Below are positions 3,449 through 35,734 of a stretch of DNA of 64,000 bases, piece by piece. The notes under the pieces were generated by a model. That model did no database searches. It was not told where the DNA came from and saw only the letters and a list, made by a program, of their open reading frames with translations. This stretch comes from Chitinophagales bacterium (lineage in GTDB: Bacteria > Bacteroidota > Bacteroidia > Chitinophagales > UBA10324): positions 73,720 to 137,719 of the forward strand of contig JAIBAY010000007.1 of assembly GCA_019694975.1 (NCBI GenBank), in the 5' to 3' direction. A program made the position numbers and the translations under genes. Positions within the stretch are counted from its first letter, which is position 1; each line of letters starts with the position of its first letter.

Positions 3449-3472
3449 GTCATCCCGAACTTGTTTCGGGAC
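3449..3472. repeat. solo copy of hairpin module H1 (GTCATCCCGAACTTGTTTCGGGAC) between convergent genes; possible bidirectional terminator
   Basis: A perfect 7-bp stem TCCCGAA/TTCGGGA with a 4-5-nt loop. It has the same sequence as the H1 module of the repeat arrays at 34.6-36.4 and 44.2-45.2 kb. It lies between the stop of the GT2 gene (3251) and the stop of the SDR gene (3492). Confidence 0.7.
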
Positions 3473-3491
3473 CTGATCCACATAAATAATC

Positions 3492-14713: not shown

Positions 14714-17700
14714 CTACGGATGCGCCACAAATAATCCAAAGCTCACATTTATTTCCAGCAGGTTGAAGTCTTCACCCGCCGTCGGGCCGTTGCCGGTGAT
14801 GTCGGTCACATTGTATCCAAAGGCCTGTCCTGTTACATCGAATTCTACAATGTTGAAGTCATCGCCTGCTATTTGTCCATCCTGATTCACGTCGCCGCTG
14901 TAAATCGTCCAGTGTCCATCCACATAAATCATTTGCGGATTCGGATTGTTTACGTCCGGATACGCCTGCGTAACATCGGTAGAGAAGTCATATGACGACA
15001 CACTCATCGGAACAGCCGCAGCACTCCACGTTTCCAGGGCATTCTTGTAATGGATGGAAATGTAGTAAGAGGCGCTGCCGGAAGCGTTATCGAATGTACA
15101 ACTGATCAGCCCATTGGTATGCAGTATCCCTTTGAAGGTATCCACCGGCGCATAGCTGCCTGCATCGTGTAACACAATCATGATGGTGTCTACCTCATTC
15201 GGATCGCTGGCTCCGGCGAGGCCTTGATTCACCATTACCGGTTTCATAAAGCCAGGATTAAATTCATCCATGTAACCCTGTATGTACAACGTTACATAGA
15301 AATTAACAGCACAGCTGTTGATCGTGATGTTGGCCGTCACCACACTGTCGCATCCCGATGCATTGGTGTAGGTGTGTACATATGCACCGGAGGAAGTAAC
15401 CGTTCCGCCCCAAGGCAAGGTGTAGCTGTCGCAGACCGTATCACTATACGCTGTTGGTGTGGATGGCAGGTTCACGGTAATGGAACCATTTACTGAACCG
15501 GAGCAGAATGATGAATTGGTATAGGTGTAGGTAACGAGGTGGCTACCCGAACTGTAATCAGCAGGATTAAAGATGTTTCCTGTCAGCGCTGCAGGGTTGT
15601 TGTCAATGTAATACAATCCGCCCGAAGGTGATCCGTACGTCAGCTCAAATGGGGCCGCATTCTGACAAACAGCCGGTATCGTGTCGAGCGTAGGAGTAGG
15701 ATCAGCCACCACGTTAATGGTATCATTGTAACTGGCACAGCCTAAGTAGGTTGTGTAAGTAATTACATGAGGCCCGGGGTCTACACTCGGAGCAGACGCA
15801 TCAAAGTAGAATGTTCCAAAGAACTCTACAATGGCGCCGGGAGCATCTGTTGTAAATACACCACCCGGTACATTGGGTACCAGGATAGCGCCACCAGCAT
15901 CAGACTTGCATATTTCAGGCTGCACTTCAAAGTAGGCATCAGCTTGTATCACTTCAACGGTTACAGAGTCTACTGCTGAGCAGCCACCACCATTCGTCAC
16001 AGTTACTGTATAAACAGAAGTTGCACTGATGCCGCTTGCACTGGCCGGATTAGCTGTTGTATCTACAATCGTTGCTGAAGGTGACCATGCATAAGTGAGC
16101 GAGGTAGGCGGAATCGGATTGAATCGGAATCCGTTACCATCGCCTGGCCATGCTGTGGACGTAGTGGTAGCATTACCGGTACCGGTCAATGCATTTATGT
16201 AATGGTCTGTGCCACCTGTTGCATCTTCTATACCTATGGCAGCAGCAAATGATGTGGTGCCGGCTGCAGGCCCGTATATCATCTCAATTCTGCCCGGGCT
16301 GGCGGATGCCGGTCCATAGATATTAACCTGGAAGGAAATCAGGTTGGTGGTAGTTACACTGAAGCTGGAACCTACTGCCTGATCCCACTGAAAGGCATAT
16401 ACATCTGTTCCGATCAATCCATGACGCATGCTGCCCGGGAACCCTGAACCAAGATTCGCTCCCATATCCTTAAACCAGGCAGCAATTGTATTGCTTGGCA
16501 GCGAAGATGTAAACAAGTTCCCGCTGGCGTGATCGAAGCTGGAAGTGATAGTTGAAATGTCTCCTGCAGCTACCCAGCCATTTGTTGACATAGACATCTG
16601 CGTGAAGGTATTTCCATTATAGGTGAAGGTAAACGGTAAAGTTATCAGAATACCTCCATCATCCTGGCTGCCTGTCGCAAAACCGGTCAACAATTGGGAA
16701 GCATCATTGATGATACTGATACCACCACCGGTCAGGGTACTGTAAGTTTGGCCTGTAAGGCTTGTTAACGAATAATTATTAACCATGGCACCTGCCTGGA
16801 ATGCATTGGCAGTAAGTGTGCTGGAACCTCCTGCACAGACGGAAGGCAGATTGGCTGTAACAGAGGAAATGGTTGGTGGTGTAAGCACGGTTATGGCAAC
16901 ACTTGCTGTATTCACACAACCATTGCCATTGGTTCCGGTTACGGTATAGGTGGTATTCGCAGTGGGATTCGCCGTTACGGTAGCACCTGTTGTTGGAGTC
17001 AGGTTAAGCGCTGGACTCCAGGTATATGTATTGGCACCGCCCACAGTCACTTCCACACTGCCACCTGTACAAATGGTCGGGCTGGCAGGAGTAACCACGA
17101 GTACCGGCAAAGTATCAACCAGCACTGTACCGGATGCATAAGCCGTATCTCCGCATAAATCAATTACCATAACACTATAGCTTGTAGTGGTGTCGAGTGA
17201 CACGGTGATAACGTCAGTAGTTGCTCCGCCCGGTGTCCATAAGTAAGTGTAAGGATATCCACCACCGGAGATACCGGCAGTTAAAGTTGCGGATTGACCT
17301 GCGCAAATGGTATCTGAATTCACAGCAACCAGCAACGGCTCACCTACATGTACCGTTATAGTATCAGTTGAACTGCAGGAGGTAATCGTATCCGAAGCAG
17401 TTACAGTATATGTTGTGGTAGCAGCCGGAGATACATTTACGGTACTGCCATTCAACGGGCCAGGAGTCCATACCCAATGATTTGAACCAGTGGAATTTAC
17501 CCCTGTAACAGCATTAAACTGGAAAACAGGACGCGTACCACTGGAAGTTGGGTTACTTCCGGTTGCAACAGAACACGTGGTATTGTTTGCTACGGTTGAC
17601 ATGAATGGTGTAGCATAAGTTTGCAATGTAGTACCACTGCCGCTACCTGCCACTGTTAAATCACCGCAGATGTTAATCACAATGTTTGACATACCATCCC

Positions 17701-20700
17701 AGTAGAATGGAGTAGAGAAAGGATGATTATTCAAACCGTTAACCGGTGTCCAGGTGGCAATCGAATAAACAGGGTTTACAGGATCGGTAAGGAAAGTGGT
17801 CGTCATGGCCGAAGCGCCTGTATAACCCATCGAAATCACCATGTTACTGATAAATCCGGTAGGCGTGTTGGTAACAAATAACCCTAAACTGGTAATATCC
17901 CCCGCCGTGATGCCGGCTGTTGTAAGCTCACTGCCCAAAATCAGGTATTGGCTTCTGATCGAGATACCGGTGGTTGTACCGGTCCGATAGGGTGTGCCCA
18001 CTGTGTTGATCTTGGTGGTGGCATTATCACTGCCCAGGATAACATCTGCATTGGCAAAATTACCGCTGGCCGCTGCGAGTGTTGTTGTTCCTCCGGAGCA
18101 GATATTCGAAGGTGTTGCAGTAACACTGCTGATGTTTGGATTCGGATTCACTGTTAAAGTGCCTGTCGTATCAATCGTGGCACAACCGGCTGCAGTATCA
18201 GTAGCAACTACAATGTAATGATAGCTGCCGGCAGCCGTGGGTGATATGCTCACTGACTGACCGCTTTCAGAACCGGTGATGCCACTTCCTGTTGCAGGAT
18301 ATGCTGTCCAGGAATATTGATAGTTATTGGTAGTACCTGTTTGCACGGCAGTCAGCACCGTACTTGCGCCAAGGCAAACCGGAGTCGGTGACACAGAGGC
18401 AGTAACAACATCAGGCTGGGTTACATTCGCAATCACCATCACCCTGTTGCTTTCGCACTGTCCGTTAGATTCAGTTACATAGAAAGTATCCGTGACATTG
18501 ATGGTATGCGCTGTAAGGTGATTCATATTTTCACCGGAAAGCGCTGTACCGCCTGATGGATTCAGATACCAATGGTAAGCAGGTGAAGGTAATCCGGATG
18601 TTGATGTTACATATACTCCGGGAACGCCTAAGCCACACTGTATTGAGTCATGACCTATCGGATCGGTTGGCACAGGTATCGAGATAACATTCACCGTATC
18701 CGAAATTGTACATCCTCCAGTACTGGTTGCTGTTACGGTATAGGTCGTACTGGTAGTTACATTGGTAGCTTCAGGGTTTTGCAGACTCGAATCATTCAGG
18801 AATGCAGCAGGTGACCATGCATAAGTGAATGAAATCGGTGATGCCGGGGCAAACCGGACTGCATCATTGGTAAGCGTCCAGGTAGTGTTGGCATTACGAG
18901 CGTTATCAACAACTGCTACTCCACCGCCTGCATTTTCAATTCCTTGTGTATGAGGATTCCATAGCACTCCATTCGGATTTTGCGGCATTGAGGTCGTATG
19001 AATCTCAATAATATTGCTTGACTCATACAGGACAATCTGTGTGGTAACCGGATCACCTCCACCGCCGGTAGTTGAATGGTGGCCTACCGCATTGTATCGT
19101 ACCACGAAAACATGGTTAATTCCACTTCCCTGGGTAAAGAAATCAATGTCGCCGTCAACGCCTGTGTCCAGATCTTCCCATGCAGCCGCTATCAGGTTGT
19201 TGGGAGCAGTGGCATTTGGCAGTGATTGTCCGCTGCAGCATCCTGAACCCGGAGAAGCATCAAAAGAAATAAATCCGTTAGTGGAAATGGTTACCGTAGA
19301 ATAAGTTGTGCCAAAGAAAGTAAAGTTGAAGCCTATCGGTACACCGGACAGGGTTGCATCATCACCCGAAGGACCCGGGGAGGTCGCTCCAGACGGAACC
19401 ACCGGAGCAAACGGTGTACTTGTCAATGAATAGCCTCCGGTAATCGGCACCGATGCCGAAGCACTCAGTTGCGAAGTTGCATTGGAACATACACTGCTGG
19501 GTGAGGCACTGGCTACTAATGAGAGTGTTGGCACAACGGTTACCGTTTGTGTAGCTGTCAGGCTGCAACCATTGGGCGTGGAACCGGTAACGGTATAGGT
19601 GGTGGTGATGAGCGGAGTTGCTACCACGTTGGTTCCGGTAGTAACATCCAATCCCGCTGCAGGTGCCCAGGTATAGGAGGTAGCTGTACCAGACGCTACC
19701 ATCGTAACACTTCCGCTGCCGCAAATTCCACCGGCTGCAGGAGAAGGCGATATGGATACGGTTGGTGTCGGTATAACAGTTACCGTTGCATAAGCGGTAT
19801 CCATTCCTGAACATCCGTCAGCAACCGTAATGGTGTACGATGTGGTAACCGTTGGGTTAGCGGTTACACTGGCTCCCGTGGTATCACTTAACCCATAAGC
19901 AGGATGCCAAGTGTAAACGAAAGGCGCACCGCCACCTGTTGTAACAGCCGTCAGGGTAGTGGAATATCCTTCACAGATCGTATCACTGTTCACCGTCAGG
20001 TCTGTCAAAGGATCAGCTACCACTGTTACGGATGCCGTATCGGAACATCCGCCGGCACCCGATGCTGTTACAATAAAGGTTGTAGTACCCCCTAAGGCAT
20101 TCGTCGCTGTGTTCTGGCTGTTGGCGCTTACAACATCTGCAACCGGTGTCCATGAATAGCTCAGTGAATTTGGAGTGAAACTATATCCGTTACCATTGCC
20201 CGGCCAGGCTGAAGAAGTAGTGGTAGCCGTACCATTACCTGTTAAAGCATTAATATAATGATTGGTACCACCTGTACCATCTTCAATACCAATTGCAGCA
20301 CCAGTAGCTGTTGTTCCTGCATTAGGTCCATAGATAATTTCAATCTTGCCCGGGTTTGAAGAAGCCGGACCATAGATATTAACCTGGAAGGAGATCAGGT
20401 TGGTTGTGGTAGTACTGAAGCTTGAACCAACTGCCTGATCCCATTGGAAGGCATATACGTCAGTTCCGATCAGCCCATGCCGCATGCTGCCCGGGAAACC
20501 GGATGCAATGTTTGCACCCATATCCTTAAACCAGGCGGCAATTGTATTATTAGGCAGTGAATTGGTGAATAAGTTACCGGCTGCATGATCGAATGTGCTG
20601 CTGATTGTTGATATGTCGCCTGCTGCTACCCATCCGTTAGTTGACATAGACATCTGGGTAAAACTATTACCCATGTAAGTGAAAGTGAACGGCAGGGTTA

Positions 20701-23700
20701 TCAGTACACCGCCGTCATCCTGCGTACCTGATGAAAAACCAGGCAGCAGCTGTGCAACAGTATTAATGACCGTGATGCCACCGCCTGTAAGCGTTGAATA
20801 GGTCTGACCTGAAAGGCTGGCTAACGAATAGCTCAACCCGGTCTGTGTTGCAGATGATGTAAGGCTTGTTGTATTCCCGGAGCATATTGCCGAAGGTGTC
20901 GCTGCAGCTGTAACGGTTACTGTTCCACCCACCTGTATGTTGGCCGTAGCAGTATTTGTACAGGTATTGCTGCCGGTTCCGGTTACCGTATAAGTAGTTG
21001 CCGCTGTCGGGTTGGCACTAACAGAGGCACCGGTTGTTGCACTGAGTCCTGTGGCAGGTGCCCAGGTATAAGACACTGAAGTGCCGCTTGCTGTAAGGAC
21101 TGCTGCCACGCCTCCACATGCTGAAGCATTGTCCGGCGTAACAATAACGGTAGGAAGTGAGTCGACCGTTACCGTACTGTAAGCGGTATCCGTCGCTCCA
21201 CAATTATCCGTTACGATTACCTGGTAAACGGTAGTTGTATCGGGATTGGCATTCACGCTTGCTCCTGTTGTCGCACTTAATCCCAATGCAGGTGACCATG
21301 CGTAACTGAATGGAGCACCACCGCCAAAAGATACTGCTGTGAGTGCAGTGGTTTGTCCAACACAAATGGCAGGTGAGTTAACATCCAGGCTCAAAGGTTC
21401 ACCCACGGTAACCGTTACCGTAGCTGTGGCAGTACATCCTGTGGATGCATCCAAAGCTGTTACGGTAAACGTAGTGGTAGTATCTAATGCATTCGTGGTA
21501 ACCGGTGAACCGGTGGTGCTGACTAAATCTGATGCAGGTGACCAGGTGAAGTTGGTTATCGCTGTTACAGGAGGTGTAAAGGTATACACCGTACCGCTTG
21601 GGAAATTGGCACTCGATGTAACACTGAACTCTGAAACATTGCTTGCTGTAGAGGTATTTGCGGGCAACAGCGGGGTAACACTTAAGAAGTTACCTGCGTT
21701 TCCGGATATACCAATGGAAGCTGTTGGGCTCGATAAAGCTGCGCTGGTAGCACCATAAACAAATTCAATCTTACCTGTTGCTTCATACAGGATTGCCTGC
21801 ATGGAAATGGTTGGATTTGAGCTTGAACCTGATCCGGCAACATGCATGTTTTTCCACTGTACGGTGAGCACATGGTTTCCAGTGCCACCGGTAGTCAGGT
21901 ATTGAATGTCACCACCGGTCATGTTATTATCATCCCAAAGCGGTGCGATAAAGTTGGCATTGGAAATTAAGGCGTTACTAAAGAATCCAGAGGTAGCCGA
22001 TGTGGTTTCACCCGGTTTCATCCAGCCATTTGGTGATACGGCAAATACGGTATGGCCGGTGCCGTTGTAATTGAAGGTAAAGCCGATTGGCAGGTTGCCG
22101 GTAAATCCGTCATCCTGGCTGCCTAATGTTACCGTAGTGCCGGTAATAAAACTAAATCCACTGCCTGCAGATCCTGCAAAAGTATAAGCACCCGGAGCAT
22201 TTGAGCCCGGTTTTGAAGCAGTGGCCGACAAGGAAGACGTTGCACCATTGCATACTGAAGCAGGTGTAGCCGTTGCTGTTGCAGTAACTGCACTGTTTAT
22301 TATGCTGAAGGTTGAAGGTGATGCCGGATCAGTGGTCACTGTATTTACATCTGTCGCTATTGCACCGCTTGCATTGGAACTGATATTCGGAGTCACCGGC
22401 ACCGTATCCTGTGCAATGATGTAATAGGATATCACATCCGAAAGTGTTGCGCCTCCGAAATCTGAACTCACGATGGTAAATGACCATGTTCCGCTCGTGC
22501 CGCTGCCTGAAGTCAGAACACCCGGCTGCGAGAAGTAGGATCCTGCTCCCTTTTTATAATAAATGCGCGGCACCAATGAACCGGTAGTCCATACACCAGT
22601 GGCATCTGTAATGGTAGCTGTCAAGGTACGGTCCGCCGTACATCCATTGGAAAGGGCTGTGTAGGTAATTACCGGACTGGTATGATCACTGATAATGCCC
22701 TGGAATTCATCGGCACCGATATCAGGTGCTGTGCCGCCTGAAGGATAGCCCGGATTACCGCCGGGGTAGCCGATATTGCCAAAACGGATATGGCCGTCCC
22801 AGTCATCTGTGATACCGGTGACGTTAGCAGCACCGCTCTCCATTTGCGTGGCAATGGAAGAACTGATATGCAGATAATCAGAAGCCAATGCTGCAGGTGA
22901 AGTACTGATGAAGGGTGGATCTTCCGTTACTGACTGCTGATCACGAGTTGCGGCCGCGCTCTTGTACTTGCTCAGTGACTGTGCAGAATCCGATGTGCTG
23001 GAGAAGTAGATCAACCTGTTGGCAGAAGGACCGCCTGCATAAAAATTATTCTGGTTGGAGGCTGTTGAATATCCTGAAAATCCCGACGCGGCACGGCGGT
23101 AGGCGACCGTAAAGCTGGTTCCTGCTGAACCTGGTGTGCTGAGGTTGTCTATAATATTATTTCGCATTTCAACAATCGGCGGAGTGGTGGAGCTGGAAAT
23201 ACTTACGCCCGATGAACCAAAGGTGGTTCCGCCACTTGCGGCAAGCCTGATGGTATTAAAGTATAATCCAACAGCCTGTGTGGCGGTTGTACTAGACAGG
23301 CTGATACCGATCACTGCATTGGTTCCCGTAGCGGCAGGTGCCAGAAGATCGCCGATATAGTTGTTGTAAACACCGGTCTGTGTGCCGGATGTTACCGAAA
23401 TACCGATTACAGTCGTGCTGGCTCCTGCACCAATCAGGTTAAAGACACGGTTCTTAGAGTAAAGCACAGTGCCGCCTGCTGAAGAGGTAATACCGGTAAT
23501 GGCCGCACTTCCGGCAGAATACAAGCTGTCAACCTGATTACCGCTCACCGTCCGTGTATTTCCACTGATGGTATTATTTAAAATACCGCGAATCGTATGC
23601 GTTCCGGTAGAGGCACCCGTAACGTACAATCTGCGAATACTGTTATTGCTAATGGTTTCAATGGTAGGTGAACCGGAATTAGAATAACCTGTCACCGTAG

Positions 23701-26700: not shown

Positions 26701-29700
26701 CACTAACCGGCGTACTGGGTGTAACCGTTATGGCAGCACTGCCTGTTTTATCACCTGACTGAGCAGTGCATGATGTTCCGACATCCGTTAGCGTGGCAAT
26801 CGTATACGTATGACTGGATCCGGGTGTAACTGAAACACTGATCGGGCTGGATGATCCGCTGAAGGCTGTTCCATCATCTAAAGTTCCATTCCAGGGACCA
26901 GTTCCGGTAACCGCAATCGAAAGCATAGCGCTGCCGCCTGCACAAATGGTATCATCGCCGCTGATAACGCCGGTTACTATGTTCACATTAACCTTGGCGG
27001 TATCGCTGGCGGAACATAAGCCATTACCGATGCTCACACTGTAGATCGTAGTGGTGGTGGGACTAACGCCGGTTGGGTTTTGTGCTGAAGAAGTGAAACC
27101 TGAAGGCACAGCCGTCCATGCATAGGTTAAGGTGGCAGGATTCGGTGTAAATGTAATGCTTTGTCCATCTACAAGACTTGCCGTATTACAGGAAAACTGC
27201 AATGCTGATGATGCACTGTAATTCAGACCAATCGTGGCGCTTGCACCACCGTCAAAGCCCGATGCACCGTAGGTAATATCCGGATAGACAATGTTAATTT
27301 TATTAGTGGTTTGTTCCAGTTGAATCTGGAAGGTAATGGTGCCGGTTCCCGTGGCATTGAAATTATCTTCATTCGTCCATTGAATGATATACAGAGAGCC
27401 GACCTGCTGCGTTACGATGGAAGTAGTAACACTGCCTGATGTTGTCATATCATCCCAATTAGCACAGATCGCCGCGAGAGAATTGCCGGTTCCGGTTATG
27501 AGACCGACAGAACCTGTTGAACTTGGTGCGATATCCTGAGGAAGGCAGGAATTGGTGTAAATGATATCGCCTGTTGTTGTACCAAACACCAGCACACCAT
27601 TGTTTCCTATCCTGGCGGTGGTATAGTCAACTCCGTTAAATTTAAAAGTGAATGGTAAGGTAAGATTATGCTCGCTGTCATCAGAAGGGGTGCCCACAGA
27701 AGTACCGGTTCCACTAATGTCCGTGAAAGCAACACCGCTGTTACCATTTAAGCTGTAGCCTACGCCGGCGAGTGCGGTGGTACCGGTGGAAGTTAAATCA
27801 ACCGTGCCACCATTGCAAATAGTGGAAGCGCTTGCCGATGCTACCACACCGGTTACCGCCGGATTAACAGTTACAGATACGGCAGCGGAAGTATTGCTGC
27901 AACCTGATTTGGTTACAACCACTGTATAACTGCCTGTTGTGGAAGGTGTATACGTGGAATTAGTTGCTCCGGAAATATCCGTGCCGCCCGATTTCCATTG
28001 GTAGGTTGGTGAAACAGCATCAGAGGTAGCGGTAAGCGTTTGCAATGCATCACTGCAAACCGTTATCGGACCGGCAGGTGTGATCCCTGCAGTAGGTATC
28101 GGGTTGACTGATACGGAGGCAATATTGGAAGTGTCGCTTGCTGAAGCAGCAGGGCATGTTACAACGAGGCGATAATAGGTAGTGGAAGAAATGGTACCTG
28201 TGCTGTAGGTGGCAGTGTTGTTTACACCGGCAGCGGCAGAGAACGTACCAGCATTACCGGTAGCTGACGACTGCCATAAGTAACCGATTCCTGTTCCGGA
28301 ATTAACTGCAGAGGTTGATAAAACGGATGAGCCGGAAGTTCCGCAAATATTGGACGGCGCAGCAGAAACGGTGCTTGCAGACGCGCCTGAACAGGCCGGT
28401 GGTGTGAATTCATCGGCACCGATATCTGTTGAACGGGTGTTGCAATCAATATCATCGGTTATTGACACAGTGATTGCACCGTCATTCAGCGGGGCATTGG
28501 TGGCATTAGCAGCAACCAGGTGAAGGTCAGCTGGCAAAGAAGTAAATACAGGGTCAACCTGTAGCGTTGTTTGACTTGCATTAGGAGCCGAACCGGCACC
28601 ATCGCGGCCCGTCTCAGAAGTCCAGTTGGCAAGTGATGTTCTTGATGTGCCAGACACTGTTCCACCGGTTATACCTATCTGGTAAGTTCCTGGACCAGCA
28701 CCGGCACAAATAAAGTTGTTGTGATCAGAGGTAAGTCCCGCATAATTACCAACAGTAGAAGAATAGTTAAGTGTTACACAGGCAAACTTTACAGACGCAC
28801 CCGCATTACCAATTTGTTTATTTACGAGAATATTATTCCGCATCTCTACAGATGTAGGAGCAGTTGAAGCAGTAATGGCAACGCATGGTTCAGATTGTGT
28901 AGCAGCAGTTGAGCCGGCAATCGTACCCTGCATCATAACCGTGTTGTAATATAGCTGCGTAGTAGATCCTGTTCCTCCGCCAAGAATAATACCGGCTCCA
29001 AAATCACCGGTGGTGCCATTCGCCGACACGCCGCTAATCATATTATTGGCAATCAGGTTTGTTCCGGAGGTGGCTGCTGAAACAGCAATACCAACTGCTG
29101 AGAATGTTCCTGAATTCACCACCGTACCGATCGTGTTTTTAGTAACCGTCGCATTCGTTACTTCATTCCCGGTAGCAGTTGTGGCACTCACTGAAGTTCC
29201 TATTCCAAGGGTAATCCCAAACACATCGGGACTGCTTGCCTGGGCAATATTGGAAACATTGTTTCGCGAAATTGTGATGTTGTTTTCAAACCCTACCCAG
29301 ATACCGCCCTTGGTATTGGCGCTTGTATTGATGATGTTTTGATTGATAACCGTTCCCTGATTTTTGTTCCCGGCACTTGCCCCCTGTGAATAGATACCAT
29401 ATTGCACACCGGAAATGTTATTATTGATATAAGAATTGCTATTGTTACCGGTTCCCAAGCTGGAAGTACTGATAGTGCTTGAACCACAACCAACACCAAA
29501 GAGTGTTTGAGTGACGCCACTTCCTGTAATATTGCAGTTCCTGATAGTATTGCCGGTTGCGCCATCTGAACCAGATGTCTGCAGCCATACCACAGCACTG
29601 GAAGTGCCTGTATTGGTGTTCGTAATGGTCAAATCGCGTGATGCCGCCACATCGGGACAAACTGTATTCGAAGTGGCCGATGTAGATCCGTCTATCACCA

Positions 29701-32700
29701 CGTTATCAGCACCATTGATGGTGATCAGTGCCCCGGCACTCGAACCGGTTAACGTGGAGGTTACTGTGGGCTTAATGATGAGTGTATATGGGCCGGAACT
29801 GCAACCATTGTAGTTAATAGCATTCAGTGTCACGGCATTGGTCTCCGTTACACTTGCGTCAATAATATTGGCTGTTACGTTGCCTGACATACCGCTTGTG
29901 TTGATCGCAAGGAAAAGGCTGCTTGCCGCACCGGTAAGACTCGTGTAGGTACCGGATGCGCCAATGGTTACCGTGCCACTCAATCCTGCAGCCACAATCG
30001 TATAACTGCTGGGAGTACCGCCGATAGAAGTGACACCCTGTGCCTGTAAATCAACCGTAGTGGGTGTGGCACCTACAAACGATCCTGCATTGATACCAAC
30101 ATTCGGTGAAGCGGCACTGTCTGATGCCACCACGAAATATTGAATGACATCACCTGCGGCTACTGCTGCCTGCAGCAAAGTGTAATCCGTGGTGAAGCTG
30201 AAGGGAGAAGCGGAATTAGCTGCTTCAACAAACTTCCATCCGTTGTTCGCCGATGTATTGCCTGCAAATGCATTCGCATCCGTAGATTTTTTGAAGTATA
30301 ATCTTGGGCGGCTGCCGGTTGCGGTTTTCACACTGCTGGCATCGGTAATGGTGGATGACAATGTTCTGTCGTTTGTGCATGATGTGCTCCCCAATGTAGT
30401 GTATGATATAGCCGGTGGCACAAGGTCTAAACCAATTCCGCATAATTCCCAGGCTCCAACATCAGGCGCACTACCTGCAGGGGTACAAGCGACATAACTC
30501 GGATTACCAAACCGAACCGTTCCAGAATAATCATCTGTGTATGTTGCAATGTTCACCGCACCACTTTCAATCTGTTTTGCAGATGACACTTTATATTTCA
30601 GGAAATCAGCACTTGAACCGGTAGTACTTTGAAATTCAGGGTCTTCAGAAAATGAAGAACCATCTCTTGGGGCAATTGTACCTGCTGTAAACACCCCATT
30701 CTTATAGGCAGTCATCGTTTGTGCCGTAGAAGTTCCATCTGAATAGATCAGGCGGGTGGCAGATGGAGTTCCCGCATAAAAATCATTGTTATTGGAAGTG
30801 CTGGCGTAGTTGGCAAGATTGTTCGATGCACCACCACTGCGCCTGTAAGCAACAGTTAAGCCTGTTCCTGCAGGCGTGGAAATATTAATTACAATGTTAT
30901 TCCTCAGATTGAGCGTGGAAGTTGTAGATACGGTAGAGATTGTGTGGAAGATACCGGTAGTACCAAAGTTGGCACCTGTGGAAGAAGCATTTAGGTTGAT
31001 GGTATTGTAATAGACATTATGCGTAGTTGAAGTTGATGTAGACGTAATATTTATCCCCCTGATAGCATCCGTAGAGGCAGCCGCAGCGGCTGTTAAATTG
31101 CCGATGAGATTGTTATAAATATTATTAGGATTGGTTGAACCACCACCTGAAATACGAATTCCACTCACGATGGTTGATGTACCGGTAGCAAGTGTAGACA
31201 AGCCATGAATCCTATTTTTATACACATTGATACCGCTACCACCCGAAATCAGAATTCCGTCAATAACAGGGCTGGCAGTACTGGTAGCAGCACCGATTGA
31301 AATATTCGTAATGGTATTGTTGAATACATTAGCCAATGTTCCACCACTTATAGCAATACCGCTAACCGTTGGAGAAGCAGTAATAATGCCGGTGAAATTC
31401 ATTGCTGAGAATGTATTATTTGTTATTGAATGAACACCGGAACCTGATTCATTTATACCAGTCATAGCTGTAGGTGAAGTGGTACTGGAAGAAAGTGACA
31501 GGGTATTTCCCGTAATAGTCATGGCTGTGCCCGTAGTAGTAATACCAGTTACTGTTGGTGCAGCACAAGAAATGGTAACTGAATTATTCTTGATAAAACC
31601 AGTATTTGTAAAACTACAAGTAATACCAATGGTTGTACCACTATGTGTGCCGGAAATATTGATTGTATTATTGTTCACATTTTTATTGCCGGCTGCTGGA
31701 GAACTGGGTCCACCAAGTGATGAAATTGCTGTCGCCGTTGTAGTTCCTGCAAGATTGGTAAACGTGATCGTATTGGCTGAAATGGTATCAGCAACTTCGG
31801 AAGGTGAGCCTGATGTAGATTGAAATATGATAGAACCTGATGCAGCCACCCTGTCAACATTCATTGTATTGCTCTTTATGTTCACCAGCACCGTTGCGGT
31901 TGCATCCTGGAAAACCCCAATGAGTGCGCCAGTACTCCGGATAGTAGATCCCGTTGTATTCAAATTGTTACCCGTAACATTAATAGTTCCGGAAGCTGCA
32001 CTTACGTTAATGTAGGTAATTGCACCGGATCCATATGTACCTGAACCTGTTTGTGCTTGCTTAATAGTAATTGCATTAGTCGTGGTAACATTTACGGTGG
32101 TTGCGACAGCATTAGCTGCAATTCCAGTAACTGGACTTGTAACAGCACTAGTGGAAGAAGTTGTTTGATTAATTGTTATCGTATTTGTGAGCGCATTCAA
32201 AGTTGTTGAGGTACCGGCAATAGTAAGGCCGGTTATCGCACTTGATGTTGCTCCTGTACCCGAAGTCGTCTGGTTAATAACAATTATGTTTGTATTACAG
32301 GTATTCGTTGCGGATGAATAATTAGCTTTAATACCAATCACAGCAGCTGAAACTACAGCAGAAACTGTTTGATTAACCGTAACATTATTATTGCTTCCTG
32401 TAATTGTTCCTGTACTGATACCATGTCCAAAATCAATACCTGTCATTAATGCAACTCCCGTACTGGTAATGTTAACTGTATTGTCACTGATGGTGGAGGT
32501 ATAGGTAACACCCGTTGGAGCTGTGCCACTGCTGATCATAATACCATTCAAGCCGCCTGATCCTACATAAGCTAAACTGGTAGAAGTAACAGAATTAAAT
32601 CTGATGGTATTTCCGGCACCATTCCTAAAATAGATACCTGCCTGTACGGTTGATTGTGATCTGTTCCAGACACCTGAACTGGCTACTGCATTTCCAAAGG

Positions 32701-34129
32701 TAATCGTATTGGCAGTTGCTGCGGAGGATCCTCCAATATCATTACCTGTTTCAAAAACTGTAGCAGTAATAGGCGGACAGATAAATACAATACCCTGGGC
32801 CACGTTTGAAATAGTATTCTTATAAATTTTGTTGTTTGAATTGGTACCCGCCGTGCTGGTTGCGTCCAACGCTCCAAACGGAGATGATCCGTCGCTTGAG
32901 GAAGTTGAAAATATACCGACGCTATTTGTGTATGAAGCGTTCAAAGAAATGGTACAATTCTGAATAGTATTGTTCTGTGCTCCGTTAGTTGCAGTAGCAT
33001 GAATAAGTAAGACACCAAATTCCGTCATTGTATTCGTGGCTCCTGTAGTTAGTACAGTATTACCCGCATTTTCCTGCATTGTAAGTCCGTCAATAGTTAT
33101 ATAATCACCACCAGTTATTTTAAAAACCGCATCAAATGACGCAAGTGCCGCAGTTCCTGCAGCTACCTGTAAGCCAGCAGTAATGGTAGAAGCAGCACCT
33201 GCTGCTTTTACAAACTTAATTCCGAGAGTCGATGTACCGGTTGCAGTAATATTGTAACCACCTACCGGCGCAGTTTCCGTATACCCTGCGGCAATATCAA
33301 ATTGAACATCGCCGGTACCGGTTACACCATTAGTATTTATGTAATTGACGGCAGAAGCAATTGTCGCAAAGCAACCCGGTATAGCATAATTACCAACCGG
33401 CAAAGCACCCGACAATGATCCGCAATAGTTAAAAGTCGCTTTATAGTTACTGCCGCTGTTATTGAGGAACTGAGTGCCTAAGGTGGTGGCTTCCTGGGAA
33501 AAAATTTCAATGGTATAATTAGCAGGTGTCAAGCCGGAGAGTACGTTGATGCCGAGCGTGATATCCTTCCACTGCTGATCTTCCCCGCCGCAACCATTGG
33601 CACCGCCGCTGGAATAACCGATATTGCTTTGCGTGAAAGAGCCGGGCGTAGTGCCGGTCTTATAAATCCTGTAATTGAGGGTGGTACTCGTGATATCCGC
33701 TCCGCCGCATTTGTACACGTTGTGCTCCGCGCCTTTCAGCACGAGTGTATTCGCCCCGCTGAAGTTACCGAGGTTGGCACCGTTTAAGGACGGGTTGGCA
33801 CCGCAACTGGTATTGCTCGGCATGCAGTAATAGCTGTCGCCACCACCGTTGATGCTGAATACGGCATACGAGCTGTTGAAGCCCGCCGACTGCGCAAAGC
33901 CCGGTTGCACCCCTGCTCCCAGCAGCATGGCCAAAACAAAAAAAGCAGCCACTACGAAGGAGACTGCTTTGCTCATCTTGCTTCCCGAAGAAGCGTTGGA
34001 AACGTTTGTCGTAGCAACAGGCATCGCCGGCATAACATTGACTGCCGCGTTGGTGTAGATATTTCTCATGGTCTGGTGGTTTTTACCGGTAGAAGTAGCG
34101 TGGGAAAGGGAGGAGTAACAATGCTTCAT
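14714..34129 (-). CDS. giant modular cell-surface protein, 6,471 aa (probable true start at Met52, ~33976)
   Basis: The frame is open for 19,416 nt. It has a Sec leader, MSKAVSFVVAAFFVLAMLLGAGVQPGFAQ, and three beta-helix-like super-modules ending in D[IV]GA[DW]E[FL]. It also has dozens of Ig-like modules, five ~220-aa DD..LPF.F.F.G....NG modules, one copy of the neighbour's 51-aa module, and a dockerin-like C-terminus. Confidence 0.9.
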   Translation of the reverse strand: MKHCYSSLSHATSTGKNHQTMRNIYTNAAVNVMPAMPVATTNVSNASSGSKMSKAVSFVVAAFFVLAMLLGAGVQPGFAQSAGFNSSYAVFSINGGGDSYYCMPSNTSCGANPSLNGANLGNFSGANTLVLKGAEHNVYKCGGADITSTTLNYRIYKTGTTPGSFTQSNIGYSSGGANGCGGEDQQWKDITLGINVLSGLTPANYTIEIFSQEATTLGTQFLNNSGSNYKATFNYCGSLSGALPVGNYAIPGCFATIASAVNYINTNGVTGTGDVQFDIAAGYTETAPVGGYNITATGTSTLGIKFVKAAGAASTITAGLQVAAGTAALASFDAVFKITGGDYITIDGLTMQENAGNTVLTTGATNTMTEFGVLLIHATATNGAQNNTIQNCTISLNASYTNSVGIFSTSSSDGSSPFGALDATSTAGTNSNNKIYKNTISNVAQGIVFICPPITATVFETGNDIGGSSAATANTITFGNAVASSGVWNRSQSTVQAGIYFRNGAGNTIRFNSVTSTSLAYVGSGGLNGIMISSGTAPTGVTYTSTISDNTVNITSTGVALMTGIDFGHGISTGTITGSNNNVTVNQTVSAVVSAAVIGIKANYSSATNTCNTNIIVINQTTSGTGATSSAITGLTIAGTSTTLNALTNTITINQTTSSTSAVTSPVTGIAANAVATTVNVTTTNAITIKQAQTGSGTYGSGAITYINVSAASGTINVTGNNLNTTGSTIRSTGALIGVFQDATATVLVNIKSNTMNVDRVAASGSIIFQSTSGSPSEVADTISANTITFTNLAGTTTATAISSLGGPSSPAAGNKNVNNNTINISGTHSGTTIGITCSFTNTGFIKNNSVTISCAAPTVTGITTTGTAMTITGNTLSLSSSTTSPTAMTGINESGSGVHSITNNTFSAMNFTGIITASPTVSGIAISGGTLANVFNNTITNISIGAATSTASPVIDGILISGGSGINVYKNRIHGLSTLATGTSTIVSGIRISGGGSTNPNNIYNNLIGNLTAAAAASTDAIRGINITSTSTSTTHNVYYNTINLNASSTGANFGTTGIFHTISTVSTTSTLNLRNNIVINISTPAGTGLTVAYRRSGGASNNLANYASTSNNNDFYAGTPSATRLIYSDGTSTAQTMTAYKNGVFTAGTIAPRDGSSFSEDPEFQSTTGSSADFLKYKVSSAKQIESGAVNIATYTDDYSGTVRFGNPSYVACTPAGSAPDVGAWELCGIGLDLVPPAISYTTLGSTSCTNDRTLSSTITDASSVKTATGSRPRLYFKKSTDANAFAGNTSANNGWKFVEAANSASPFSFTTDYTLLQAAVAAGDVIQYFVVASDSAASPNVGINAGSFVGATPTTVDLQAQGVTSIGGTPSSYTIVAAGLSGTVTIGASGTYTSLTGAASSLFLAINTSGMSGNVTANIIDASVTETNAVTLNAINYNGCSSGPYTLIIKPTVTSTLTGSSAGALITINGADNVVIDGSTSATSNTVCPDVAASRDLTITNTNTGTSSAVVWLQTSGSDGATGNTIRNCNITGSGVTQTLFGVGCGSSTISTSSLGTGNNSNSYINNNISGVQYGIYSQGASAGNKNQGTVINQNIINTSANTKGGIWVGFENNITISRNNVSNIAQASSPDVFGITLGIGTSVSATTATGNEVTNATVTKNTIGTVVNSGTFSAVGIAVSAATSGTNLIANNMISGVSANGTTGDFGAGIILGGGTGSTTQLYYNTVMMQGTIAGSTAATQSEPCVAITASTAPTSVEMRNNILVNKQIGNAGASVKFACVTLNYSSTVGNYAGLTSDHNNFICAGAGPGTYQIGITGGTVSGTSRTSLANWTSETGRDGAGSAPNASQTTLQVDPVFTSLPADLHLVAANATNAPLNDGAITVSITDDIDCNTRSTDIGADEFTPPACSGASASTVSAAPSNICGTSGSSVLSTSAVNSGTGIGYLWQSSATGNAGTFSAAAGVNNTATYSTGTISSTTYYRLVVTCPAASASDTSNIASVSVNPIPTAGITPAGPITVCSDALQTLTATSDAVSPTYQWKSGGTDISGATNSTYTPSTTGSYTVVVTKSGCSNTSAAVSVTVNPAVTGVVASASASTICNGGTVDLTSTGTTALAGVGYSLNGNSGVAFTDISGTGTSVGTPSDDSEHNLTLPFTFKFNGVDYTTARIGNNGVLVFGTTTGDIIYTNSCLPQDIAPSSTGSVGLITGTGNSLAAICANWDDMTTSGSVTTSIVTQQVGSLYIIQWTNEDNFNATGTGTITFQIQLEQTTNKINIVYPDITYGASGFDGGASATIGLNYSASSALQFSCNTASLVDGQSITFTPNPATLTYAWTAVPSGFTSSAQNPTGVSPTTTTIYSVSIGNGLCSASDTAKVNVNIVTGVISGDDTICAGGSAMLSIAVTGTGPWNGTLDDGTAFSGSSSPISVSVTPGSSHTYTIATLTDVGTSCTAQSGDKTGSAAITVTPSTPVSVSLAPDANPVCDGTGVTFTATPTNGGAAPNYEFFKNSLSVQNGSSNSYAYTPANGDAIYVVLTNTDAGCYSGNPYTSSTVNMTVNPLLPASVTATTPSDSICAGSAVTFTANPTNGGGSPAYQWYLNGAPVSGETNSTYNTSSIADQDSVWVVMTSNATCATGSPATSNHLHMTVSGAITASITISTVSPTTICEGTAVTFTSLTTGGAGTYQWMNGASPISGATNASYTTDSLSNGDVISCEFTANFACATPNPASSNTITMTVNPSPAIPVISADGPLTFCGPGAVKLWTQYSGSGILWSTSETTDTITVTSTSNITVTVTAGGCSSTSAITTVTINSASAIITPSSATVCTGGTVTLTALATPAAASYLWSPGSETTNTITAGAGTYSVIVTDVNGCIDTATATINENASPSVTVTATCSTIFPGGSVTLTANATAGSGTITGYQWKNSLGNIAGATNSTYTTSAAESYTVVVTNSNGCSTTSTPPVVLTTLSGALAAGMYAIPSNCGFQTINAAVNYMSANGVSGSVVFNVAAGHSENAPVGGVVYNQCALSAGIQSGSTRTVTFQKSGVGANPKINAYAGTSTTVDGIVKIVGGDYITFDGIDVAEIISNTTPTLQMEWGYALLKCDGNNGSNSNTIKNCAITLNKANTASVAIYSGNHTAANTTGLTYSNGAGNEDASRNGRNTFYGNTISNTYTGISLNGNATAGPSASLNDTLNQVGAIGQAANSITNFGGGSVAVNAIIETNQRGLSVDNNTINGGTASTSTVTGISMGSGVWGNIRNNTITLASAATTSTMTGITCGFSGGTATNPNLINITGNTVQNINYSTSTSATFTAITCSAGGTSAVININTNTVQNNTVAGTGTITCITSTSGPSGGTVNINGNTVSGNTASNVSTTGHTMALITNSGAPATLSMSNNTINNNLHSGVGTMNGLVSTGSATNFTMNTNTITNNTMTGGGGSCTLTCSQSTTSIYTYSGNTIRNNGVSTMTGTSTATVTGYSNSGSPTIETISNNSIRRLYVTGASTGTHTIRGILNNTISGNTRTVSGNQVDSLYSAGSAAITGITSSAGGTVLYSKNRVFNLIGAGASTTVIGISVTSGTQTGVYNNYIGDLLAPAATGTNAVIGISLSSTTATQAVGLYFNTIRLAASGGTTFGSSGVSISSSTTPPIVEMRNNIIDNLSTPGSAGTSFTVAYRRAASGFSGYSTASNQNNFYAGGPSANRLIYFSSTSDSAQSLSKYKSAAATRDQQSVTEDPPFISTSPAALASDYLHISSSIATQMESGAANVTGITDDWDGHIRFGNIGYPGGNPGYPSGGTAPDIGADEFQGIISDHTSPVITYTALSNGCTADRTLTATITDATGVWTTGSLVPRIYYKKGAGSYFSQPGVLTSGSGTSGTWSFTIVSSDFGGATLSDVISYYIIAQDTVPVTPNISSNASGAIATDVNTVTTDPASPSTFSIINSAVTATATATPASVCNGATSSLSATASKPGSNAPGAYTFAGSAGSGFSFITGTTVTLGSQDDGFTGNLPIGFTFNYNGTGHTVFAVSPNGWMKPGETTSATSGFFSNALISNANFIAPLWDDNNMTGGDIQYLTTGGTGNHVLTVQWKNMHVAGSGSSSNPTISMQAILYEATGKIEFVYGATSAALSSPTASIGISGNAGNFLSVTPLLPANTSTASNVSEFSVTSSANFPSGTVYTFTPPVTAITNFTWSPASDLVSTTGSPVTTNALDTTTTFTVTALDASTGCTATATVTVTVGEPLSLDVNSPAICVGQTTALTAVSFGGGAPFSYAWSPALGLSATTGASVNANPDTTTVYQVIVTDNCGATDTAYSTVTVDSLPTVIVTPDNASACGGVAAVLTASGTSVSYTWAPATGLSATTGASVSANPTAATTYTVTGTGSNTCTNTATANIQVGGTVTVTAAATPSAICSGNTTSLTSSATQTGLSYSLASLSGQTYSTLTGGGITVINTVAQLLPGFSSGTQDDGGVLITLPFTFTYMGNSFTQMSMSTNGWVAAGDISTISSTFDHAAGNLFTNSLPNNTIAAWFKDMGANIASGFPGSMRHGLIGTDVYAFQWDQAVGSSFSTTTTNLISFQVNIYGPASSNPGKIEIIYGPNAGTTATGAAIGIEDGTGGTNHYINALTGNGTATTTSSAWPGNGNGYSFTPNSLSYSWTPVADVVSANSQNTATNALGGTTTFIVTASGAGGCSDTASVTVVADPLTDLTVNSDTICEGYSTTLTAVTTGGGAPFVYTWHPAYGLSDTTGASVTANPTVTTSYTITVADGCSGMDTAYATVTVIPTPTVSISPSPAAGGICGSGSVTMVASGTATSYTWAPAAGLDVTTGTNVVATPLITTTYTVTGSTPNGCSLTATQTVTVVPTLSLVASASPSSVCSNATSQLSASASVPITGGYSLTSTPFAPVVPSGATSPGPSGDDATLSGVPIGFNFTFFGTTYSTVTISTNGFISFDASPGSGCCSGQSLPNATAPNNLIAAAWEDLDTGVDGDIDFFTQGSGINHVFVVRYNAVGHHSTTGGGGDPVTTQIVLYESSNIIEIHTTSMPQNPNGVLWNPHTQGIENAGGGVAVVDNARNANTTWTLTNDAVRFAPASPISFTYAWSPAAFLNDSSLQNPEATNVTTSTTYTVTATSTGGCTISDTVNVISIPVPTDPIGHDSIQCGLGVPGVYVTSTSGLPSPAYHWYLNPSGGTALSGENMNHLTAHTINVTDTFYVTESNGQCESNRVMVIANVTQPDVVTASVSPTPVCLGASTVLTAVQTGTTNNYQYSWTAYPATGSGITGSESGQSVSISPTAAGSYHYIVVATDTAAGCATIDTTGTLTVNPNPNISSVTATPSNICSGGTTTLAAASGNFANADVILGSDNATTKINTVGTPYRTGTTTGISIRSQYLILGSELTTAGITAGDITSLGLFVTNTPTGFISNMVISMGYTGASAMTTTFLTDPVNPVYSIATWTPVNGLNNHPFSTPFYWDGMSNIVINICGDLTVAGSGSGTTLQTYATPFMSTVANNTTCSVATGSNPTSSGTRPVFQFNAVTGVNSTGSNHWVWTPGPLNGSTVNVSPAATTTYTVTASDTITSCSSTDTITVHVGEPLLVAVNSDTICAGQSATLTAGISGGGYPYTYLWTPGGATTDVITVSLDTTTSYSVMVIDLCGDTAYASGTVLVDTLPVLVVTPASPTICTGGSVEVTVGGANTYTWSPALNLTPTTGATVTANPTANTTYTVTGTNGNGCVNTASVAITVLTPPTISSVTANLPSVCAGGSSTLTANAFQAGAMVNNYSLTSLTGQTYSTLTGGGISIINDASQLLTGFATGSQDDGGILITLPFTFTYNGNTFTQMSMSTNGWVAAGDISTITSSFDHASGNLFTSSLPSNTIAAWFKDMGANLGSGFPGSMRHGLIGTDVYAFQWDQAVGSSFSVTTTNLISFQVNIYGPASASPGRIEMIYGPAAGTTSFAAAIGIEDATGGTDHYINALTGTGNATTTSTAWPGDGNGFRFNPIPPTSLTYAWSPSATIVDTTANPASASGISATSVYTVTVTNGGGCSAVDSVTVEVIQADAYFEVQPEICKSDAGGAILVPNVPGGVFTTDAPGAIVEFFGTFYFDASAPSVDPGPHVITYTTYLGCASYNDTINVVADPTPTLDTIPAVCQNAAPFELTYGSPSGGLYYIDNNPAALTGNIFNPADYSSGSHLVTYTYTNSSFCSGSVNGSITVNLPSTPTAYSDTVCDSYTLPWGGTVTSSGAYVHTYTNASGCDSVVTANITINSCAVNFYVTLYIQGYMDEFNPGFMKPVMVNQGLAGASDPNEVDTIMIVLHDAGSYAPVDTFKGILHTNGLISCTFDNASGSASYYISIHYKNALETWSAAAVPMSVSSYDFSTDVTQAYPDVNNPNPQMIYVDGHWTIYSGDVNQDGQIAGDDFNIVEFDVTGQAFGYNVTDITGNGPTAGEDFNLLEINVSFGLFVAHP
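14717..14900 (-). other. dockerin-like duplicated Ca-binding segment at the C-terminus of the giant protein
   Basis: GDVNQDGQIAGDDFNIVEFDV and TDITGNGPTAGEDFNLLEINV are two ~21-aa segments with the D-x-[ND]-x-[DN]-G-x-[IT]-x-x-x-D EF-hand/dockerin pattern. No YPNP...type-A or SprB-type T9SS CTD is visible. Confidence 0.55.
15313..15450 (-). repeat. single copy of the 51-aa module of the neighbouring gene inside the giant gene
   Basis: The translation VCDSYTLPWGGTVTSSGAYVHTYTNASGCDSVVTANITINS follows the same pattern as the 24 tandem units at 9546-13210. Confidence 0.8.
16083..16785 (-). repeat. paralogous ~230-aa module, copy 5 (nearly identical to the copy at 20145-20835)
   Basis: YSLTSLTGQTYSTLTGGGISIIN...SQDDGGILITLPFTFTYNGNTFTQMSMSTNGWVAAGDIS...GFPGSMRHGLIGTDVYAFQWDQAVGSSF...ISFQVNIYGPAS... 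Confidence 0.85.
20145..20835 (-). repeat. paralogous ~230-aa module, copy 3
   Basis: YSLASLSGQTYSTLTGGGITVIN...TQDDGGVLITLPFTFTYMGNSFTQMSMSTNGWVAAGDIS...GFPGSMRHGLIGTDVYAFQWDQAVGSSF...ISFQVNIYGPAS... Long identical peptide runs are shared with the copy at 16083-16785. Confidence 0.85.
22703..25225 (-). other. beta-helix-like super-module C of the giant protein
   Basis: It starts LSGALAAGMYAIPSNCGFQTINAAVNYMSANG. It has many N-x-I-x-N / NNT[IV] rungs and ends ...TAPDIGADEF. Confidence 0.5.
28406..29900 (-). other. beta-helix-like super-module B of the giant protein
   Basis: NTIRNCNITG..., NNNISGVQYGI..., NNMISGV... rungs, ending ...CNTRSTDIGADEF. Confidence 0.45.
30440..33420 (-). other. 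beta-helix-like super-module A of the giant protein
   Basis: It starts LSGALPVGNYAIPGCFATIASAVNYINTNG (a paralogue of the start of module C). It has long runs of T/S/N-rich rungs and ends ...GSAPDVGAWEL. Confidence 0.5.
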
Positions 34130-34620
34130 GTAATAAAAATTAAAGGATTGAAATGTAAAGTGGATGGTTGAAAGAAGGCGGGAAAGCAGCAGCGCATGAT
34201 GAAAGGCGGGAAAGCGTTACAGCAGCACTGCAACGATGCAGGCGGCTAAAACACGCAGATGACCATGCATGAAGAGGAGTAAAGGTTAACTTCATTGAAC
34301 TGTTTTACCTGGCTGTGATTGCTTGAAAAATGCATTCGTTAATGAATGCCGGTGTTTTAAAAGCCATCAAACGTAAACCTTTATTATGCTAAAAAAAATA
34401 CAATTCGGTGACACTTTCTTACCAATTCATGAATTAAAATGCTATGAATTTTGCATCATTTCATAGCTATAGAATAAAAAATGCGAATAATATGAGTTGC
34501 CAGCCATGGCTTACGGCGGATACGGAGCATGAGGGAATATTGTTATAGGAAGGGCGTGTGTCGTGGGTGGCTGTAATTGTAGATTGGTTGTTGATGGTGG
34601 ACTATGGATTGTTGAAAAAA
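34130..34620 (-). promoter_or_regulatory. ~490-bp A+T-rich upstream region of the giant gene with direct repeats and palindromes
   Basis: The direct repeat [AG]AAGGCGGGAAAGC occurs at ~34174 and ~34202. Palindromes are GCATTC-gttaat-GAATGC (~34332-34349), AATTCATGAATT (~34423-34434) and GCTATGAA-N11-TTCATAGC (~34441-34467). No promoter element could be assigned with confidence. Confidence 0.35.
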
Positions 34621-35262: not shown

Positions 35263-35306
35263 TAAAATTGATACTGATGCCATCTTAAATATATTTTAAC
35301 ATCTAA

Positions 35307-35645: not shown

Positions 35646-35734
35646 AGAAAATATTGATGAATATTGAATGAAGATACAACTTAGTTTTTAGCATTTATTT
35701 GATGCGGGGCAATAGATCAAAAAGTTATTGAAGA

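Follow-up and report, generated by a model that had tools for sequence, protein, structure and literature searches.

A single minus-strand gene in a 64,000-nucleotide stretch of a Chitinophagales genome (assembly GCA_019694975.1, contig JAIBAY010000007.1, positions 73,720 to 137,719; the whole stretch is called the window) encodes a modular, predicted rod-shaped protein of 6,420 codons from its most likely start, referred to here as the giant. On balance, and with slightly more confidence than doubt, we propose that this is an intact gene of a Chitinophagales-type Bacteroidota bearing a type IX secretion system (T9SS), and that its product is a Sec-exported, probably non-catalytic giant surface fibre or adhesin which is tethered by a dockerin. 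A signal peptide is followed by extracellular-type modules throughout, comprising β-helical rods, about 25 Ig-like spacers and five NIDO-like modules. The protein is assembled from common Bacteroidota adhesin parts, and its one unusual trait is a C-terminal X-module and dockerin dyad (X-dockerin) instead of the usual T9SS tail. Since two neighbouring genes carry a Por_Secre_tail, the host was taken to be a T9SS-bearing Bacteroidota; the closest genomic relatives of the locus are Chitinophagales and other Bacteroidota.

Reading frame, start codon and integrity of the gene

14714-34129, minus strand: whole open frame, 6,471 codons plus stop (mechanical listing of open reading frames, ORFs, and translation)
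14714-33976, minus strand: most likely coding sequence, Met52 to the stop, 6,420 codons (homologue N-termini)
33893-33976, minus strand: Sec signal peptide, aa 52-79, predicted cleavage ..GFA/QSAGF (sequence; the slash marks the cleavage site)

The initial annotation described a frame of 19,416 nt encoding 6,471 amino acids (aa), and translation of 14714-34129 revealed zero internal stops over its 6,471 codons. The chance of such a frame is about e^-310 at roughly 3 stops per 64 codons. The dominance of T, S, G, A and N that had been noticed amounts to 58% of the residues. In at least 38 homologues, the domain equal to aa 80-236 of the giant starts at residue ~22-28, right behind a signal peptide ending in ..A/Q, a junction common to P0029, P0037, P0001, L003 and L007. 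The corresponding ..PGFA/QSAGFN junction of the giant lies 28 residues past Met52. Signal cleavage in Bacteroidetes habitually leaves an N-terminal Gln, which the A/Q junction fits. Since the homologues begin the conserved domain directly after the ..A/Q signal peptide, Met52 (33976), which had been put forward as the start together with a Sec-type leader, was adopted. The mature protein (aa 80-6471) has 6,392 aa, with a computed mass of 642 kDa and an acidic computed pI of 4.3.

Assembly chimerism had been raised as a worry. The longest exact repeat within the gene is 22 bp. Contig L001 of GCA_964600605.1 is colinear with aa 3709-6471 of the giant (the C-terminal ~2,760 aa) at ~77-87% amino acid identity, broken only by a 100-N scaffold gap, and the open frame at locus L003 of a Chitinophagales metagenome-assembled genome, at least 4,678 codons long, matches the giant colinearly across 2,010 aa with 52% identity. 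Because the longest exact repeat is so short, colinear orthologues exist in two independent assemblies and the paralogous modules are 22-80% identical in protein sequence, a chimera is very unlikely, and the sequence argues for a real, uninterrupted gene. We give hardly any credence to the alternative that the long frame is a chimera or a product of collapsed repeats, or else a periplasmic or non-functional relic. It could draw on the highly repetitive nature of the gene at module level, on the gap within a duplicated NIDO module of the related assembly and on the lack of a recognised outer-membrane export signal, but 19.4 kb run without a stop, and all modules are of extracellular type.

The 100-N gap (L001 6288-6387) in the orthologue of GCA_964600605.1 interrupts precisely the duplicated NIDO-like module, and only the last 571 aa of this orthologue are called as a gene in the source annotation.

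Modular architecture

The modules along the giant are given below with the evidence for each in brackets (HMM, hidden Markov model; AF2, AlphaFold2; foreign profile, profile built from foreign homologues only).

33422-33892, minus strand: conserved N-terminal domain, aa 80-236, ~155 aa (homologue comparison)
30443-33421, minus strand: β-helix super-module 1, aa 237-1229 (DVGAWEL at aa 1223; AF2, Foldseek, Asn ladder, foreign profile)
29999-30442, minus strand: post-helix Ig-like domain, aa 1230-1377 (Foldseek to P. gingivalis PPAD)
28406-29998, minus strand: β-helix super-module 2, a shortened paralogue, aa 1378-1908 (DIGADEF at aa 1902; foreign profile)
27824-28339, minus strand: two Ig_7/PKD-like modules, aa 1931-2102 (HMM)
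27137-27775, minus strand: NIDO-like or RemA-N-terminal-like module, copy 1, aa 2119-2331 (profile)
25226-27172, minus strand: seven Ig_7/PKD-like modules and one divergent, aa 2320-2968 (HMM, Pfam)
22703-25225, minus strand: β-helix super-module 3, aa 2969-3809 (DIGADEF at aa 3803; foreign profile)
22250-22702, minus strand: post-helix Ig-like domain 2, aa 3810-3960 (paralogue of aa 1230-1377)
21569-22201, minus strand: NIDO-like copy 2, aa 3977-4187 (profile)
20888-21601, minus strand: three Ig-like modules, aa 4177-4414 (HMM)
20168-20848, minus strand: NIDO-like copy 3, aa 4428-4654 (profile)
19493-20200, minus strand: three Ig-like modules, aa 4644-4879 (HMM)
18842-19447, minus strand: NIDO-like copy 4, aa 4895-5096 (profile)
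18104-18874, minus strand: three Ig-like modules, aa 5086-5342 (HMM, Pfam)
17540-18103, minus strand: orphan module X, aa 5343-5530, 188 aa
16841-17539, minus strand: three Ig-like modules, aa 5531-5763 (HMM)
16112-16789, minus strand: NIDO-like copy 5, aa 5781-6006 (profile; 80% identical to copy 3)
15386-16144, minus strand: one Ig-like module, aa 5996-6074 (HMM), and a 174-aa stretch, aa 6075-6248 (by eye)
14717-15385, minus strand: X-module and dockerin dyad, aa 6249-6471 (AF2, Foldseek, homologues; last residue Pro)

Of the total length, 37% is β-helix and 27% falls to the 22 Ig-like modules; NIDO-like modules account for 17%, and the pair of post-helix Ig-like domains for another ~5%. 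When the complete protein and its individual modules were scanned against Pfam and NCBIfam, a check that the initial annotation had suggested, only Ig_7/PKD-type matches came back, and ~70% of the giant is invisible to both libraries. Queried against PDB as single sequences, the last 417 aa, a NIDO-like copy, helix 1 plus the post-helix segment and module X gave nothing significant. The listing of homologues was restricted to proteins of at most ~1.75 times the query length, and giant relatives were found via genome loci instead.

Three β-helix-like super-modules closing with a shared motif had been described. The foreign profile picked out exactly these three regions (aa 237-1229, 1378-1908 and 2969-3809), and each of them closes with the motif D[IV]GA[DW]E[FL] (aa 1223, 1902 and 3803), which is found nowhere else in the giant. 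The boundaries agreed with those given before except for the start of the second super-module, which lies at 29998 and not at ~29900; this super-module covers foreign-profile positions 11-211 and 627-926. The first and third super-modules indeed have paralogous openings, with LSGAL-type starts at aa 239 and 2971 and 44% identity across ~160 aa. The post-helix regions are paralogous as well (aa 1201-1379 versus aa 3777-3944, 36% identity). Foldseek matched the first post-helix domain to PPAD of P. gingivalis (4ytg and other entries, prob 1.0), in a part which we take to be the Ig-like domain of that protein.

Structure predictions of single modules had also been called for, and the AF2 model of aa 237-1410 (predicted local distance difference test, pLDDT, 88; predicted TM-score, pTM, 0.80) was all-β, with short strands in groups of about three. 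The helices of the giant have about 27 rungs, and the family alignment contained an invariant Asn about every 35 residues. Apart from the group that matched the post-helix Ig-like domain, the recognised Foldseek matches were right-handed β-helix proteins, namely PL6 lyase, phage tailspikes, PfbA, GH136 and pectin enzymes, and the super-modules are modelled as right-handed parallel β-helices with a pectate-lyase-like fold. More than 547 homologues of the β-helix were found; among the top 120, 66 end in a type A C-terminal domain (CTD).

Because the top Foldseek match was an enzyme, PL6 alginate lyase, a catalytic role was considered, in which the super-modules would be polysaccharide lyases or hydrolases and the giant a surface-bound enzyme. 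GH136, pectin methylesterase, pectate lyase and tailspike depolymerases were among the other matches, and the family alignment has invariant acidic residues (D106, E134, D964 and D987). However, identity was only 8-12% with E≥3e-3, and non-enzymatic β-helix adhesins such as PfbA matched equally well. No enzyme family of Pfam or NCBIfam matched the giant, and no catalytic motif could be assigned in the β-helices. A surface-bound enzyme thus seems improbable to us, and the non-catalytic fibre is preferred.

A self-trained HMM detected 22 Ig_7/PKD-like modules of ~78 aa (independent E value, i-E, ≤1e-3), and a few divergent ones bring the total to ~25. The Ig-like modules seen initially are therefore present, but at about two dozen their number had been overstated as dozens. 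Pfam calls several of them Ig_7 or PKD-like, with a best E of 1.5e-13 for Ig_7. By eye, aa 6075-6248 consist of two divergent ~75-aa modules and the start of one 51-aa repeat, YTLPWGG..CDSVVTANITIN, which continues into the X-dockerin part.

The five copies of a ~220-aa module reported before were recovered as NIDO-like modules of 202-227 aa (~215 aa); divergent copies are 22-31% identical, and copies 3 and 5 match at 80%. A profile of the NIDO-like family matched residues 18-265 of PDB chain 8gl6_D, deposited as 'RemA', with an E of 2.9e-32. As identified in PMC10994853, the substrate caught in these translocon complexes is the RemA homologue RemZ (Fjoh_0803), resolved in its CTD only. Pfam NIDO (PF06119) matched 7 of 36 family members, and no copy of the giant reaches this model by itself. 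The profile comparison makes clear that the ~215-aa module and the NIDO-like domain at the N-terminus of RemA/RemZ are homologous.

Comparison with gliding adhesins

SprB, the gliding adhesin of Flavobacterium johnsoniae, has ~6,500 aa. The giant is near to it in size and, like SprB, is Sec-exported and repetitive with Ig-like modules, including those of the CHU_C-associated Ig_7 type. Together with the five NIDO-like modules, homologues of the N-terminal domain in the RemA/RemZ-family chain of 8gl6, these features would suit a gliding-motility adhesin of the SprB/RemA kind that is moved by the gliding track. In contrast to SprB, however, the giant lacks SprB repeats (PF13573), a type B CTD (PF13585/TIGR04131) and a downstream sprF-like gene (PMC12618676), and it holds β-helix and NIDO-like modules and an X-dockerin end. 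Directly downstream, no porP/sprF-like shuttle gene was found; the gene there encodes a 1,947-aa type A cargo protein.

RemA and RemZ, the mobile surface lectin adhesins of F. johnsoniae (8gl6 chain D), are adhesin-type proteins of a T9SS organism as is the giant, but share only the NIDO-like domain with it. RemA-type proteins, of ~1,400 aa, combine a single NIDO-like domain with a lectin domain and a type A CTD (PMC12618676); the giant carries the NIDO-like domain five times, all internally, and lacks both a lectin domain and a CTD. A SUEL lectin domain was not found, and no segment of the giant had a Pfam match to a lectin or Por_Secre_tail domain. We regard a gliding adhesin as quite unlikely, and a fibre held by its dockerin as the better description.

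The C-terminal X-dockerin

The C-terminus had been called dockerin-like, and both homology and fold pointed in the same direction. The AF2 model of aa 6249-6471 (pLDDT 92) consisted of a β-sandwich followed by two loop-helix segments, in which the Ca-loop-like segments DVNQDGQIAGDD and DITGNGPTAGED lead into helices 174-185 and 204-215, respectively. The best Foldseek matches were the X-module and dockerin dyads (XDoc) of scaffoldins, 4fl4_C, 4wi0_B and 4u3s_B, with E values of 3e-4 to 1.5e-3, 195-211 aligned columns, TMq 0.43-0.50, prob 1.0 and ~13% sequence identity. No T9SS CTD entry was recognised among the top 50 matches. Pfam Dockerin_1 matched 18 of 32 aligned X-dockerin homologues (best E 1e-8), and PDB dockerin 6kge matched the giant C-terminus weakly (E 0.1). 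In the predicted structure, the last two domains of the giant are an Ig-like X-module and, packed onto it, a dockerin with two loops.

A word-indexed search with aa 6249-6471 returned 71 homologues, whose passengers include S8 peptidase, GH18, CHRD and arylsulfotransferases. A HMMER scan with the X-dockerin profile gave 16,964 representative proteins at E≤1e-3, which is an over-estimate since the profile takes in upstream Ig-like columns. Neither Pfam nor NCBIfam has a model for the X part, though thousands of representative proteins bear it, and our literature search found no paper on this X-dockerin end domain in Bacteroidota or Ignavibacteria. The X part (14717-15385; P0121-P0366) has the consensus KHRNxLETWS...YDFS..QAYG, and in nearly all members Pro is the last residue or the one before it.

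The X-dockerin might instead be an unrecognised T9SS export or sorting signal that plays the role of a CTD, rather than an anchor that binds a cohesin after secretion. Its strict position suits such a signal: it ends at most 3 residues from the C-terminus in 117 of the 137 top representatives, with the conserved Pro last or second-last. It also alternates with type A CTDs on homologous passengers, as 7 of the β-helix homologue frames in other genomes end in an X-dockerin and 6 in a type A CTD. Every named source lies within the Fibrobacterota-Chlorobiota-Bacteroidota (FCB) group (Bacteroidota, Chitinophagales or Ignavibacteria), members with complete N-termini start signal-peptide-like when read by eye, and the dyad holds an Ig-like β-sandwich like the type A CTDs (PMC11285876). 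However, about 6 of the 137 representatives, and P0136, run at least 31 residues beyond the X-dockerin. In P0136, the X-dockerin is no substitute for a CTD, because a bona fide Por_Secre_tail comes after it. The best structural matches are, moreover, cohesin-binding dyads, with no recognised T9SS CTD among the top 50, and TIGR04183, TIGR04131 and the type C models gave no match. We therefore consider a sorting signal unlikely and favour the dockerin tether.

More tentatively, and with considerable doubt on our part, the X-dockerin may stand for an extensive C-terminal system, as yet unannotated, by which T9SS-bearing FCB bacteria (Bacteroidota, Ignavibacteria) anchor or sort proteins in parallel with the type A and B CTDs. 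If so, giant fibres and many enzymes (S8 peptidases, GH18, arylsulfotransferases and CHRD proteins) would be displayed via a cohesin-dockerin-like interaction or a new mode of T9SS recognition, with the T9SS-anchored repeat protein encoded downstream, in conserved synteny, as a candidate receptor. Giant repetitive adhesins are expected in Bacteroidota, so that size alone is no news, and the more novel element is the widespread, unmodelled end domain. The giant and many relatives swap the canonical T9SS tail for an X-dockerin, which raises the questions of how a 640-kDa protein without a known CTD passes the outer membrane and what the dockerin binds. The locus offers a clean, chimera-free reference architecture, and the β-helix, NIDO-like and X-module families deserve curated models.

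Proposed mode of action and evidence against it

In the proposed mechanism, the Sec leader would export the giant, with cleavage of the signal peptide. Docking of the X-dockerin to a receptor, of cohesin type or other, would then depend on Ca2+ and keep the protein on the cell surface or in a matrix, in a manner likened to the type II X-dockerins that anchor cellulosomal scaffoldins and to the dockerin/cohesin system of Cloacimonadota. The chain of >100 nm would present the β-helix and NIDO-like modules outward, where they might bind polysaccharide, particles or other cells.

Several observations weigh against this proposal. T9SS tails of types A, B and C were not found on the giant with Pfam (E≤1 on the last 417 aa), NCBIfam (E≤10 on the last 150 aa) or an in-house CTD HMM. 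The type A models PF18962/TIGR04183 had no match at the C-terminus and the type B models PF13585/TIGR04131 none in the giant, while the in-house HMM matched both neighbouring genes. The surface location is one that we infer for a protein with no recognised T9SS tail. A tblastn search with the P0141 cohesin as query found no cohesin in the window or in 38 related loci; the P0141 cohesin, the sole one in the X-dockerin family, is itself a weak Pfam match, and the gene neighbourhoods of P0141 and P0340 showed no conserved X-dockerin partner. Within the dyad, the second Ca loop is degenerate (T and N replace N and D), and Pfam Dockerin_1 (PF00404-type) misses the giant's own copy. The Foldseek scores of the β-helix are weak, with an enzyme as the top match. 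Lastly, module X (aa 5343-5530) had no match in any library tried (Pfam, NCBIfam, single-sequence PDB), the N-terminal domain (aa 80-236) had none in Pfam, NCBIfam or PDB with a profile PDB search included, and neither carries an assignable function.

Another point on this side concerns the protein encoded downstream. Its N-terminal region looked cohesin-like by eye, but this cohesin reading was rejected, with no support from Pfam, PDB or BLASTP.

Scaffoldins, other known systems and relatives

The XDoc of C. thermocellum CipA/ScaA (4fl4; 4wi0 and 4u3s, Coh3ScaB-XDocScaA) has the same order of a C-terminal Ig-like X-module followed by a two-segment dockerin, and it is known to fix a very large scaffold to the cell. 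The giant differs from it in being only ~13% identical within the dyad, in its diderm Bacteroidota host instead of a Firmicute, and in having no cohesins. In Cloacimonadota, enzymes with C-terminal dockerins and a cohesin scaffoldin with a T9SS CTD were inferred from genomes (PMC8542988). These bacteria are likewise diderms of the FCB group, and their signal-peptide-bearing GH18 and S8 peptidase proteins with dockerins correspond to passengers of the X-dockerin family; there the dockerin is borne by enzymes, here by a fibre of 6,400 aa. PfbA of S. pneumoniae, phage tailspikes and PL6 lyases are alike at the fold level only, sharing the right-handed parallel β-helix, but the helices of the giant are much longer and are embedded in a multi-module chain. 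The giant is not SprB, not RemA and not a scaffoldin, and in line with the initial annotation no characterised adhesin with the same module order was found.

Proteins of this size had been called rare in bacteria, which is true in general but not of this lineage. Open frames with the same β-helix module and the same X-dockerin end were found at L007 3554-22165 (6,204 codons) and at L011 3-16070 (at least 5,356 codons), further giant relatives in the phylum have frames of 4,325 and 3,943 codons, and X-dockerin-family proteins reach 6,310 and 5,012 aa. Since other genomes of the phylum hold relatives of ~4,000-6,300 aa, giants recur in this lineage.

Neighbouring genes and other features of the window

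8748-14591, minus strand: co-oriented downstream gene, encoding a 1,947-aa T9SS type A cargo protein with ~27 copies of a 51-aa repeat

The genes flanking the giant encode two Por_Secre_tail (T9SS type A) cargo proteins, DUF5686, CarboxypepD_reg proteins, pyruvate:ferredoxin oxidoreductase (PFOR) and penicillin-binding protein 1 (PBP1). The ~27 near-identical tandem repeats of the downstream protein, YALPWGG..CDSVVTANVTINH, are the same repeat as that of the giant, and the synteny of the two genes is conserved in L001. The downstream T9SS-anchored protein is a candidate partner or receptor, and a functional link between the two is possible. Because exact DNA repeats of at least 112 bp are present in the downstream gene, its copy number may be mis-assembled. 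No terminator-like hairpin was found between the two genes. Pfam matches of the downstream protein to HPTransfase, Ribonuclease and PHR had no single significant stretch and were read as repeat artefacts.

Upstream of the giant gene, a scan for the sigma-70 consensus found no promoter. Since Bacteroidota promoters differ from this consensus and the scan takes in no other promoter types, the result is uninformative; a TAnnTTTG box is present at 34375 (regex match only). Rfam gave zero matches anywhere in the 64-kb window. The 2.4-kb spacer upstream of the giant contains, at 34617-36372, two groups of ~175-245-bp direct repeats with four copies each, which flank a 112-aa ORF of the GIY-YIG nuclease family (35307-35645, minus strand).

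Elsewhere in the window, 5320-7710 (plus strand) encodes a 796-aa protein with CUB domains, which are uncommon in bacteria, and a T9SS type A tail. The adjacent ORFs at 50603-51115 and 51179-51685 (plus strand) each match one half of the same class I/II aminotransferase, N-terminal and C-terminal, respectively, and may stem from a frameshifted or interrupted gene; a tyrosine integrase gene (52177-53436) lies a short way downstream of them. A resistance-nodulation-division (RND) pump of the AcrB family is encoded by two ORFs with a 4-nt overlap, 60702-62612 and 62609-63889 (minus strand), which cover profile positions 1-420 and 413-1020 and adjoin an OEP gene and two HlyD-type genes.

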